DNA of 64,000 nucleotides from the NCBI GenBank assembly GCA_963924565.1, contig OZ004609.1:11098001-11162000 (forward strand), given 5' to 3'. The notes under the pieces are model-generated. The model worked only from the letters and a program-made list of their open reading frames with translations, ran no database searches and was not told the DNA's origin. Made by a program: the position numbers and the translations under genes. The number at the start of each line of letters is the position of its first letter. Within the stretch, counting starts at the first letter, position 1. The DNA comes from Ascidiella aspersa. Lineage: Eukaryota. Of the stretch, positions 76 to 3,200 are shown one piece after another.

Positions 76-211
76 CTAGGTAAACAGCATACCAGTTGAC
101 ATATCTCCAGATTCGAAATATTCTGGGTTGTGAAGATTGTTTTGATTTCGATTATAACTTGCAACAGTTGCAGAATACTTTGGTGCCTTGCTTGTAGTTT
201 CGTTACCATTT
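76..211 (-). CDS. probable last MET-like exon (NPEY motif)
   Basis: TGTTTCAG acceptor; ...[27 protein letters not shown] on minus at 28-33. A donor at 92 could extend the gene beyond the window. Confidence 0.55.
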
Positions 212-3200
212 CTGAAACAGATTTTGACAGTGATGTTTTCTTGTATTAAACTGTATTTTTTTGTTATCCCAATCGTTAAATAATCATCCTTGCAGAATCG
301 ATATACACTACTTCTACAGTTAATTGTATAATAATTGCTCTTTAATTACGTACTGAACAGTGGGTGCACAGATAAAAAAACTTCAGAGATGATATATTTA
401 TTTTGAAATTTTTTCAAAAAATGTGACATATGCCGTAGAACACAAACCTTTGCAAAAGTGGCAGTTCATCATGTTTTTCAATGGATTGCTGTGGTAGTAA
501 ATATCCATCTTCATCAAGGCTTTCGGTTTGATTTAAATGAGGATGGTTGCGAAGTTTGGCGATAGGCGGTTTGGCACTCTTAGCTTTGTTGGTTGGATCT
601 TTTCGAATGGATTGAGATGGAAGCAGGTATCCTTCTTCATCTACGTAAACCAAACCACCATTTTATCATAAATATATAATTCAAAATATTTTATGTTTCT
701 TGGTGTGGGTATTGATTCCCTGTTGATGAGACATACAAGGCCTGAAACCATGTTCTGGACTTATAATGTTTAGGACACTGTGTTAAATTATTTTCAGTTG
801 ACGTAGTCCGGCAAACTTCTACCATTACAAATCTACTTAAGATTACATTTTATATTTAAAAAAATATCAAAATAACAAATGAAATTGTGAGTTGCATATA
901 TTGATTTTACTACCATCTAATTATTAAGATTGCTTGGCCCAGTGAAACAACCTTATACCATATTAGGTTTATTATGAGAAAAATAGACGAAAACAACTAA
1001 ATTTGGGCTGAATGCAGTATGCAACAACTATTACATTCATGTAACGCTCAATAAACCTCTTTTTTCGTTAGTAATCAAATTTTATGCACAATATGAAGAG
1101 CTTAGCCCGGGATGTAATGTATATACAAAATAGACTGACCTGTTGCACTGTCCATGGAGTTGTGAATGGATTGATTAGATGAGTTATGGGCTGAAGAACG
1201 GTCGGCAACAGATGCTGCAAATTATAAATCATTTTCATTCAAAGATGGTACTTTGATAATCTTAAAGATTAGTCAATAATTAATTGACAGTGCAATCGTG
1301 AGCATGGCCTATCCAAAACTTATATTTGTCCTATTGTAGCTGGATTTTAAGAGGGACATTTTAGATAACAACACAGAAAAGAGTGTCTAAATATGATGCC
1401 AGAGGCACATCAACCCATCGAACCATTGTTCGCCTGGAAGTTCATTTAACTGTTTATTAATTCATGATGTAATTAATGCCTGAATTAGAAACCCCTGCTT
1501 TATGTTCATTACTGTATCACAAATTACTTTGAGGGTTACCATAAATTTTACATAGAAGCAGGTTTTTATCATTGGCTAGTGTTTAAGTTTAACAATTTAC
1601 ACAGTTGTCAAAAACTTGTACTATATGCCTACATCTACCCAAAATTTTCTGTTTTCACATATTTATAGATATAAAATTTCAAGGTAAAAATCGTTATTAT
1701 GATAATTTGTGTATCACATATATTTCTCTATGTTACTGCTTAGAATGGTAACAAAGTATGGTGTTTTCGAATATTTTCCAAAAAAATATGTATTTCAATT
1801 AAAGGGTGTCTCTTGGTAGTTGGCATCTTATTATTGAATAATACTATTAAGGAGCAATCATTCGGGTTTACGTGGATAATGCAAGATGACATCCGGTGAG
1901 TTTTGATCGAAAGACATTCCCTTGTTTCTAGGAGGCGGAACTGGTGAGCTGGACTCTCCATTGAAACTTGCTTTCTGCACTGGGGTTAAAGGCCCTGGAA
2001 ACATAACAATGTATTTAGGCTGACAAAGACATGCATAACACAAATAGATGGTGGCTTGTAAAAAACATGAGAAAATAGTTTTTAATAGTGAGAAAATATG
2101 GGTGTAATATTATTTAACATTAGGTGAATGTAGTAAACATGTATTTTAGGACAAAAAACAAACCAAGGCACCAGGAGAAATCTTACTGCAATTTCTAACC
2201 TGGGTGTAATGATATTCAACATTTATTTAATGCAGTAATGCATTTTAGGACAAAAACAAATCAAAGCACCCCTTTAAAAGAAGAAATGATCATGCAAACA
2301 ATCCAATATTCATCTTCCTTCAAATAAATTATCAATAGTTTTGATTCTAACATACCAAACTAAAATAAACAACACTTAACTTTACAATTTAAATTTCTTA
2401 CACGTACAAAAACACGAAACCGATAAGTTTTACTAGTTTTGAATAAAAAGATAGCTAGGCAGTTCATGCTTTTATTGTAAGCCCAGTTACCTGGAGTAAA
2501 AACTGCTGCAAACGAGCCACCAGTACTTCTGCTTTCCGACGAGCGAACCAGAGAGGGGTAGGGGTGCAAATCACTCACATTGACATAACTCACATCAATT
2601 GCTGTACACAAAGATGGATACAAAAGGGACATACAAACAACTGACATATCATTACAGTTATATTTACAAAAAAGCGAACATAAAGTTAAAGTTATGAGAT
2701 GCAATGCCAACTACGAAACAAGAAGATGTAACAGACAATTTAGCCACATGCTTATTATATTCAATGCTAAAGATGGCAAAACTGAAAATAAAACATACAA
2801 GGATAATGGACACCATGGATGCTGCTGTGAATGACTTCGATTTCTTCAACCAGCTGCTTAAATTCCGGTCGAGAGTCTTCGTTTGGATGCCAGCAAGACA
2901 TCATGATTTTGTAGAGAGCATTCGGACAATACTGAGGCTGCCGCAATCTGCGACCCTCTAACAGGTAACTGCACAATAAAGCATTTTTTAATAGGAATTT
3001 TTTATCGAATAGAGAAATTCTCATCTTTTGTTTGCAGTCTACTTAATTCAATGGACATGTATATGTGATAGATATATATTACCTACAGGCACTGTAGGCA
3101 GTTTATGAAATGTTTGTCTTTACGCACCAAAGAACAATATACACTGTAAGCCCAAGTTTGTTTACACTGGCTTATCACACACTGTCAATTTTACTGCCAC

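Follow-up and report, generated by a model that had tools for sequence, protein, structure and literature searches.

A MET-family receptor gene of the ascidian Ascidiella aspersa with a long, conserved, predicted docking tail

The MET-like gene and its 3′ end

We analyzed 64,000 nucleotides (nt) of DNA from the ascidian Ascidiella aspersa (GenBank assembly GCA_963924565.1, contig OZ004609.1, positions 11,098,001 to 11,162,000 of the forward strand), referred to as the window herein. On the minus strand, at the start of the window, lies a gene for a MET-like receptor tyrosine kinase with an unusually long C-terminal tail, and it is this tail that concerns us here. As first read, the gene ran from 14046 to 76 as 17 GT-AG exons in a single open frame of 1530 amino acids (aa). 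The first-pass annotation had proposed, from the sequence alone, that four phase-compatible exons follow the MET-type YVNV site and carry PVPPPR, two acidic GYLLP motifs, and NPEYF. Upon analysis, the tail exons (2601-2491, 1994-1872, 1214-1140, 640-448, and 211 onward) had AG/GT ends, shared one open frame, and were entered in phases 1, 1, 1, 1, and 2; the proposed junctions were reproduced, and the motifs were all present.

The end of the gene required correction. Exon 17 has a GTATGC donor after base 93; the intron that starts there spans 1202 nt, and the coding exon beyond it, 173 nt long, continues the frame. This exon 18 adds YTPM and YMPM and matches the C-terminus of the Phallusia orthologue at z 22.1. 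Both the Phallusia (P0001) and Ciona (P0004) proteins run beyond the NPEY/NITY position, with two YxPM motifs. Because of the donor at 93 and the frame-continuing exon that matches Phallusia, we took the stop at 76-78 to be intronic; it was probably reached by read-through into intron 17, and a read-through isoform that stops there may exist. The long, multi-exon tail of the first-pass annotation stands, with its end displaced: the revised model has 18 exons and 1582 aa, every intron is GT-AG, and the tail extends 255 aa past YVNV, not 203. With its two YxPM motifs, the missed exon 18 makes the tail more GAB/IRS-like than it first appeared. The parts of the revised model are as follows.

11717..14046, minus strand: exon 1, with 2330 coding nt; a hydrophobic leader at the N-terminus, a Sema-like domain, a PSI-like segment rich in cysteine, and IPT/TIG repeats
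8461..11587, minus strand: exons 2-6 (11587-11439, 11310-11155, 9182-9063, 8995-8853, 8585-8461), open frame with GT-AG introns; remaining ectodomain, transmembrane segment, and start of the juxtamembrane region
2799..8156, minus strand: exons 7-12 (8156-8032, 7692-7552, 6848-6707, 5114-4982, 4361-4141, 2968-2799); juxtamembrane region and tyrosine kinase, with HRDLAARN at 5035-5012, activation-loop EKEYY at 4328-4314, and the first docking tyrosine (HYP)
2491..2601, minus strand: exon 13; MET-type YVNV at 2587-2576, PYPS at 2563-2552, and after these a serine-rich stretch that is kept among ascidians
1872..1994, minus strand: exon 14; PVPPPR at 1944-1927, a predicted SH3 ligand
1140..1214, minus strand: exon 15; poorly conserved serine/asparagine-rich linker, its own support being frame and splice sites
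448..640, minus strand: exon 16; two copies of D-E-(E/D)-G-Y-L-L-P spaced 42 aa apart, DEEGYLLP at 1140/640-618 (spanning the exon 15/16 junction) and DEDGYLLP at 515-492
93..211, minus strand: exon 17 with its revised 3′ end at 93; NPEYF at 129-115, a predicted PTB ligand
1..92, minus strand: start of intron 17 (1202 nt, extending beyond the window), containing the first-read stop at 78-76
G000:C3:11096890-11096718 (L013 8790-8618), minus strand, outside the window: exon 18, 173 nt coding; YTPM, YMPM, and the stop

Pfam recognized TIG repeats in the window protein at E 1e-16, above the cut-off, and Sema at E 3e-4, below the curated cut-off; the PSI match was weak and confined to the Ciona proteins. 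Two docking tyrosines, Y1317 and Y1324, lie 7 aa apart, the second within YVNV. The two DE(E/D)GYLLP copies of exon 16 are alike at 32 of 42 bases, and the pair is likely to be an internal duplication.

The closest protein found was a Phallusia mammillata receptor of 1592 aa, with 43% identity over exon 1 and 83% over the kinase; this entry is presumably the product of transcript assembly. A PDB search with the orthologue ranked MET first, then RON, then TAM kinases, with full-length human MET at E 2e-157. In a maximum-likelihood tree built by a quick method from 107 kinases (93 of 150 representatives, multi-kinase and partial proteins excluded, plus 14 chosen rows), six ascidian kinases formed one clade (Shimodaira-Hasegawa-like approximate likelihood-ratio test 99). 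Its sister group was a set of 21 MET/RON rows, the two being joined with support 99; ten of these 21 rows have vertebrate source names, and the remainder were assigned by clade. Judged by its kinase, the gene is an ascidian receptor of the MET/RON family, as first proposed.

Against its own genome, the kinase exon found itself and at least 37 weaker matches, the next best (55%) being a TAM-like kinase, and no second MET gene was seen among the matches listed. One TAM-like receptor kinase (L002, G000:C1:33172870-33176070, minus strand) is largely intronless, with fibronectin repeats, membrane segment, kinase, and tail within one 829-aa frame. Kringle domains gave at least 57 genome matches, none of which was resolved into an HGF-like gene. 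Two long intronless frames (G000:C2:23449147-23451903 and C2:26419258-26423443; 1786 and 1482 aa) contain several kringle domains each.

Conservation and distribution of the tail

We compared each tail-region exon with the tails of three other ascidians (500 shuffles each). From exon 13 to exon 18, the z scores were 30.6, 15.2, 1.9, 23.6, 12.5, and 22.1 against Phallusia, 24.5, 9.3, 0.1, 18.2, 2.1, and 5.0 against Ciona, and 17.3, 0, 0.7, 3.6, 2.9, and 0.4 against Styela. For exons 13, 14, 16, 17, and 18, the score against the Phallusia orthologue was reached by none of the 500 shuffles; for exon 15 it was reached in 29, which is not beyond chance. The motifs and their order agree between the window, Phallusia P0001, and Ciona P0004; linkers, exon 15 for example, have diverged. 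All three species retain the paired YxPM motifs (16-20 aa apart) and the paired acidic GYLLP motifs, and at least one DxxGYLxP was found in each of the Phallusia, Ciona, Styela, and Clavelina MET proteins. The complete motif set (two DxxGYhxP, one NPxY, and two YxxM), for which the patterns were picked after inspection of the sequence, occurred in 0 of 20000 tail shuffles.

The tail is predicted to be unstructured. In the Ciona protein, the predicted local distance difference test score (pLDDT) is below 50 across nearly all of residues 305-572, and the charge-hydropathy value of the window tail, 0.392 versus a boundary of 0.418, also points to disorder. Past PYPS, the serine-rich stretch at 2560-2491 (minus strand) is nearly invariant between Phallusia and Ciona and similar in Styela, with serines spaced four apart followed by VF(S/T)P; it is possibly a feedback phosphorylation relay.

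Counted from the end of the kinase, the tail is 277 aa in the window, 294 in Phallusia, 285 in Ciona, 220 in Styela, 88 in Clavelina, and 55 in a C. savignyi model. The 21 MET/RON rows have 42-81 aa, and we found 31 aa in amphioxus (a sample of one protein), 26 in sea star, 28 in sea urchin, 63 and 33 in two hemichordates, and 46 and 79 in lampreys; no appendicularian or thaliacean was identified among the rows. A YxN site was present in 110 of 111 vertebrate hits, with a median of 22 aa past it (range 19-55). DxxGYhxP occurred in five of six ascidian tails (the miss being the 55-aa C. savignyi model), in none of the 21 vertebrate-clade tails or the 111 vertebrate hits, and in 2 of 79 other invertebrate MET-like rows, which include kinases not verified as MET orthologues. 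YxPM occurred in three of six ascidian tails, 0 of 21 vertebrate-clade tails, and 0 of these 79 rows, and NPxY likewise in 0 of the 79. The extension of approximately 230 residues encoded by the last five exons is conserved, and none of the proteins examined from vertebrates and other deuterostomes has it.

A search with the tail alone recovered 2 proteins among 1293 candidates, missing Styela and Clavelina, which were later found by kinase search. P0046, which matched into the tail region, was set aside as a choanoflagellate two-kinase protein. Eight rows (P0135, P0126, P0150, P0147, P0143, P0115, P0098, and P0134) represent a clade in which an Elysia marginata MET-like protein also falls; this clade has long tails of its own (185-401 aa) that bear different conserved tyrosine motifs (LVDNYEP, YFxLE). 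This suggests a second, independent tail gain.

The short tails of amphioxus, echinoderms, hemichordates, and lampreys make a gain of the long tail in ascidians the simplest reading of the sequences. Tunicates are the sister group of vertebrates, and one gain followed by one loss could also account for the distribution: a long tail ancestral to both would have been lost in vertebrates when Gab1 acquired its MET-binding site. The somewhat longer tail of one lamprey (P0023, 79 aa) fits such a history. This history requires one step more than an ascidian gain, however, and DxxGYhxP, NPxY, and YxPM are absent from all 21 vertebrate-clade tails, three lamprey rows included, while the outgroup tails are short, amphioxus being represented by its single protein. 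We consider an ancestral long tail very improbable and retain the ascidian gain. Lineage-specific Met duplications have been reported in sea squirt and/or amphioxus (PMC4898815).

Relation to ERBB tails and to Gab

The first-pass annotation had described the tail motifs as EGFR-type. We located the ERBB gene of the same genome at G000:C9:24.36-24.417 Mb (plus strand); an ERBB-type L-domain search gave two genome matches, both away from the MET gene. The ERBB tail is approximately 510 aa long, spread over eight exons, and includes a conserved REDSSTLRYS segment. It carries DAEEYLHPQ, DEDGYLSP, NPEYE, and DEAGYEVP. The first of these is the aligned counterpart of human EGFR DADEYLIPQ, together with conserved surrounding sequence that the MET tail does not have (the EGFR peptide DADEYLIPQQG is confirmed in PMC8937303); the GYLLP motif of the MET tail is more similar to DEDGYLSP.

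When the tails were compared by local alignment, MET against ERBB gave z 2.4 (24/1000 shuffles) and the Ciona MET tail z 3.9 (1/500), a value also reached by one of 15 unrelated long tails. With the tyrosine motifs masked, the z scores of four ascidian tails were 0.9, 0.9, 0.0, and 0.4, and masked positive controls kept z 46 and 25. The likeness seen at first reading therefore holds for short motifs and does not extend beyond them, with z going from 2.2 to 0.9. Because it vanishes upon masking, the sequence comparison favors convergence over capture. Capture by exon shuffling from an ERBB/EGFR gene in an early ascidian would account for DEDGYLSP, NPEYE, and DEAGYEVP in the animal's own ERBB tail, for a best local alignment that pairs both GY motifs in order, and for the several tail introns that are phase 1 in both genes, and a very ancient event could have left eroded linkers. 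Beyond the collapse of the masked scores to z 0.0-0.9 while the controls held, and the unrelated tail that scored as high, a YxPM pair is missing from the ERBB tail model and exon 16 matches no ERBB in the PDB. Searched against its own genome, exon 16 found only itself and one match at E 9.7; its sole PDB match was DEPDC5 (E 2.8), and the matches of the ERBB DEDGYLSP exon were at chance level. We therefore regard capture as highly unlikely.

The first-pass annotation had also proposed that the receptor carries its own scaffold. We found a Gab-like gene at G000:C3:23345400-23369500 (plus strand), with PH exons, PPPRPPK, PPPVKRDLKP, multiple YxxP and YxxM motifs, and, close to its end, two SHP2-type sites. 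The gene was identified, from unassembled exons, by the arrangement of its motifs and by a PH signature; the PH exon best matched other PH domains in the PDB, which holds no Gab entry to match. Upstream of the Gab-like Grb2 site, in these unassembled exons, nothing similar to the Gab1 MET-binding sequence was seen. The Grb2 site of Gab1, PPVDRNLKP, is close to PPPVKRDLKP, and its MET-binding site is described as unique to Gab1 (PMC2175135). According to the review PMC2747914, Ciona has one Gab-like protein and the MET-binding mechanism appears to be unique to Gab1. In vertebrates, MET recruits PI3K, PLC-gamma, and Crk largely via GAB1, although PI3K and PLC-gamma are also able to bind Y1356 of MET (PMC5344233).

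We considered the tail as a compensation for loss of Gab and rejected this, a Gab gene with an apparently full motif set being present. Since that gene persists, the tail likely duplicates part of the Gab output rather than replacing it. Conservation of the tail in other ascidians supports the proposed receptor-borne scaffold; the scaffold does not substitute for a missing adaptor. No PH domain was matched by Pfam in three orthologous full-length proteins or in exon 1. Inspection of the extension for the pattern (V/I/L)xYxx(V/I/L) revealed no paired SHP2 sites; VSYVNV fits it once.

A candidate docking platform and its known counterparts

SH2 domains of p85 prefer YxPM, and those of PLC-gamma and Crk prefer YLLP. 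Taken together, the kinase phylogeny, the conservation of the extension, and its motifs suggest, with a probability that we place at about 65%, an ascidian MET/RON kinase whose conserved, predicted-disordered extension of some 230 residues works as a built-in docking platform. Ligand-driven dimerization would lead to phosphorylation of the activation-loop YY, and the kinase would then phosphorylate its own tail. Judging from its sequence, pY1324-V-N would bind Grb2, as Y1356 does in human MET (PMC5344233). The two G-pY-L-L-P sites, Y1426 and Y1468, are candidates for PLC-gamma/Crk-type SH2 domains. NPE-pY1517 may bind a Shc-type PTB domain, in keeping with the NPXpY rule (PMC3507883), and PVPPPR an SH3 domain, in keeping with PXXPXR (PMC2175135). 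Lastly, pY1547-TPM and pY1567-MPM, 20 aa apart, would together engage both SH2 domains of PI3K p85. Grb2 would continue to bring in Gab, which would supply paired SHP2 sites; since the extension has none, Gab is probably still needed for the SHP2 arm. A stepwise origin of the tail is likely, by convergent gain of short motifs, with one DxxGYLxP in the ascidian ancestor first, and later, in the Ciona/Phallusia line, its duplication and the addition of PPPR and YxPM.

Transcript evidence came from one raw RNA run (X4, approximately 6% of reads) mapped to positions 1-14400, with exon 18 outside the mapped stretch. Each of the six 480-base bins between 1 and 2880 contained stranded reads, and the first mate was always on the plus strand, as it was for the ectodomain exon. 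For depth, 19 of 30 bins were used, those with repeat pile-up being excluded; if tail reads are assigned to exons, their depth is 5.8-15.8, similar to that of the ectodomain exon, for which four wholly exonic bins gave 6.8, 6.2, 6.0, and 1.7. The tail splicing is supported by sequence conservation rather than by reads.

Several observations count against a built-in platform. No tail splice junction was seen among 15 of 144 joints listed, in a joint table dominated by repeats; exon 18 had no read coverage in this mapping. Reads lay within intron 14 (4 at 1602) and intron 16 (2 at 222), and the exon 12 bin was almost empty (0.12); because of these, the depth comparison is approximate, and transcripts that are short or unspliced may exist. 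The kinase tree was made by a quick method without bootstrap. The alignment of orthologues confirmed tail motifs in other ascidians, but the set is uneven: in Ciona NITY replaces NPEY and the first proline of PxxPxR is missing, Styela has different tyrosine motifs, PPPR and YxPM are absent from both Styela and Clavelina, and the Clavelina protein stops soon after one GYLLP, 88 aa past the kinase. The current Ciona RefSeq model P0002 terminates before NxxYF and YxPM, and few tail rows underlie the low pLDDT of the Ciona tail. A long tail by itself is not distinctive, as 13 of the 79 other invertebrate MET-like kinases have tails of at least 150 aa. With a full Gab gene present, the tail may be redundant, and the binding partners are all motif predictions.

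Among the alternatives, we find least probable that the long form is minor or unrealized, with functional transcripts terminating through read-through at 1858 or within exon 13. It would accord with the intronic reads, the unlisted junctions, and the database models P0002, P0005, P0008, and P0276, which end early. Yet five of the six tail-region exons match Phallusia far above shuffles. The last exon of a TMEM169-like gene (L013 7018-7308, plus strand) lies tail to tail with the MET gene, approximately 1.3 kb from its stop, and since this neighbor is on the opposite strand, the tail exons are unlikely to be its own. AATAAA near the read-through stops was considered as evidence for early ends and rejected as uninformative, since five of six tail introns contain one. 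The ascidian MET models P0002, P0005, P0008, P0274, and P0276 stop at differing points of the tail, which reflects either annotation errors or genuine short isoforms.

A different function is also conceivable, namely that the tail serves mainly in trafficking and shut-off, with NPxY bound, in unphosphorylated form, by PTB-type endocytic adaptors, YxPM used as a tyrosine sorting signal, the serine-rich stretch receiving feedback phosphorylation, and the whole replacing a missing juxtamembrane Cbl site. The vertebrate DYR Cbl site, seen in P0268 and of described role in MET (PMC5344233), was not matched upon inspection of the juxtamembrane region in the window; most PTB domains prefer unphosphorylated NPXY (PMC3507883). 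Gab, moreover, already supplies PI3K- and Crk-type sites. However, paired YxPM and paired acidic GYLLP motifs kept in three species would fit phospho-dependent tandem SH2 binding better, and YLLP deviates from the tyrosine sorting consensus. We judge a mainly trafficking role unlikely and prefer the docking platform. Beyond this, we offer as a tentative idea, in which we place clearly less confidence than in the platform itself, that vertebrates and ascidians independently solved the limit of a short-tailed ancestral MET. Vertebrates would have done so through the MET-binding patch of Gab1, and ascidians through a receptor-borne, Gab-like PI3K/PLC-gamma/Shc platform whose signals would reach Akt and calcium independently of Gab; shorter 3′ isoforms would turn these outputs off.

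Elsewhere in the window, upstream of the MET gene, 17498-20012 (plus strand) is retrotransposon-like, with a gag-like frame followed by a 601-aa frame with RNase H and integrase, in which no reverse transcriptase was matched. At 15750-17330 (plus strand), fragmented frames have by eye the look of a hAT-type transposase; two of them, when scanned, gave no Pfam match. A cyclin C-terminal exon (Pfam E 0.002), presumably resembling cyclin D, lies at 37644-38114 (minus strand) within a region of raised G+C content at 25000-46000 (mostly 40-52%, up to 55%, with surroundings of approximately 33%). The frame at 62516-62929 (plus strand), which had no Pfam match, we take to resemble the C-terminal exon of a proteasome alpha subunit.

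The gene itself is ordinary and already annotated, and the sequences are public; the tail is a real, conserved, and apparently undescribed variant of a known receptor. We found no description of the ascidian MET tail in the literature searched; subscription papers outside the search may mention it, such as the Satou et al. 2003 account of Ciona receptor kinases (cited in PMC2174628). The tail offers a natural comparison of which MET outputs need a separate scaffold, as with vertebrate GAB1, and which can be served by motifs in cis. Clavelina, Styela, Ciona, and Phallusia form a graded series for the gain of docking motifs by receptors, and several database models truncate the tail.

With vertebrate MET (HGFR) and RON (MST1R), the window receptor shares the Sema-like/PSI-like/IPT ectodomain, a sister-clade kinase, the activation-loop YY, and docking tyrosines 7 aa apart (Y1349/Y1356 in human MET; PMC5344233), the second of which is part of YxN and is followed nine residues later by PYPS. 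It differs in its 255 aa past YVNV, compared with a vertebrate median of 22, and in its first docking tyrosine, which is YPSI and not YVHV; inspection against P0268 also showed that the DYR Cbl site and, at the Sema position, the R-x-K/R-R furin site are absent from the window. The ascidian proteins annotated as hepatocyte growth factor receptor (Phallusia CAB3263761.1; Ciona XP_002126518.3 and XP_078495964.1; Styela XP_039266906.2; Clavelina XP_076810797.1) are orthologues under names that are silent on the tail. Phallusia and Ciona share its motifs, Styela has other added tyrosines, Clavelina is short, and several models end early.

EGFR/ERBB receptors resemble the window receptor in having a long tail with acidic-G-Y-L-x-P and NPEY motifs; their kinase and ectodomain belong to another family, and the MET tail has no DADEYLIPQ segment. 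GAB1/GAB2 and IRS, compared by motifs and not by alignment, likewise act below a receptor kinase through a disordered region in which YxxM, YxxP, and SH3-ligand motifs are clustered, and at the motif level the ascidian tail matches this content with two YxPM, two GYLLP, and one PVPPPR. Unlike these proteins, the tail has no PH domain and no paired SHP2 site, and it is covalently part of the receptor. Artificial trk-met-Gab1 fusions of similar layout have been made and used in a morphogenesis assay (PMC2175135).

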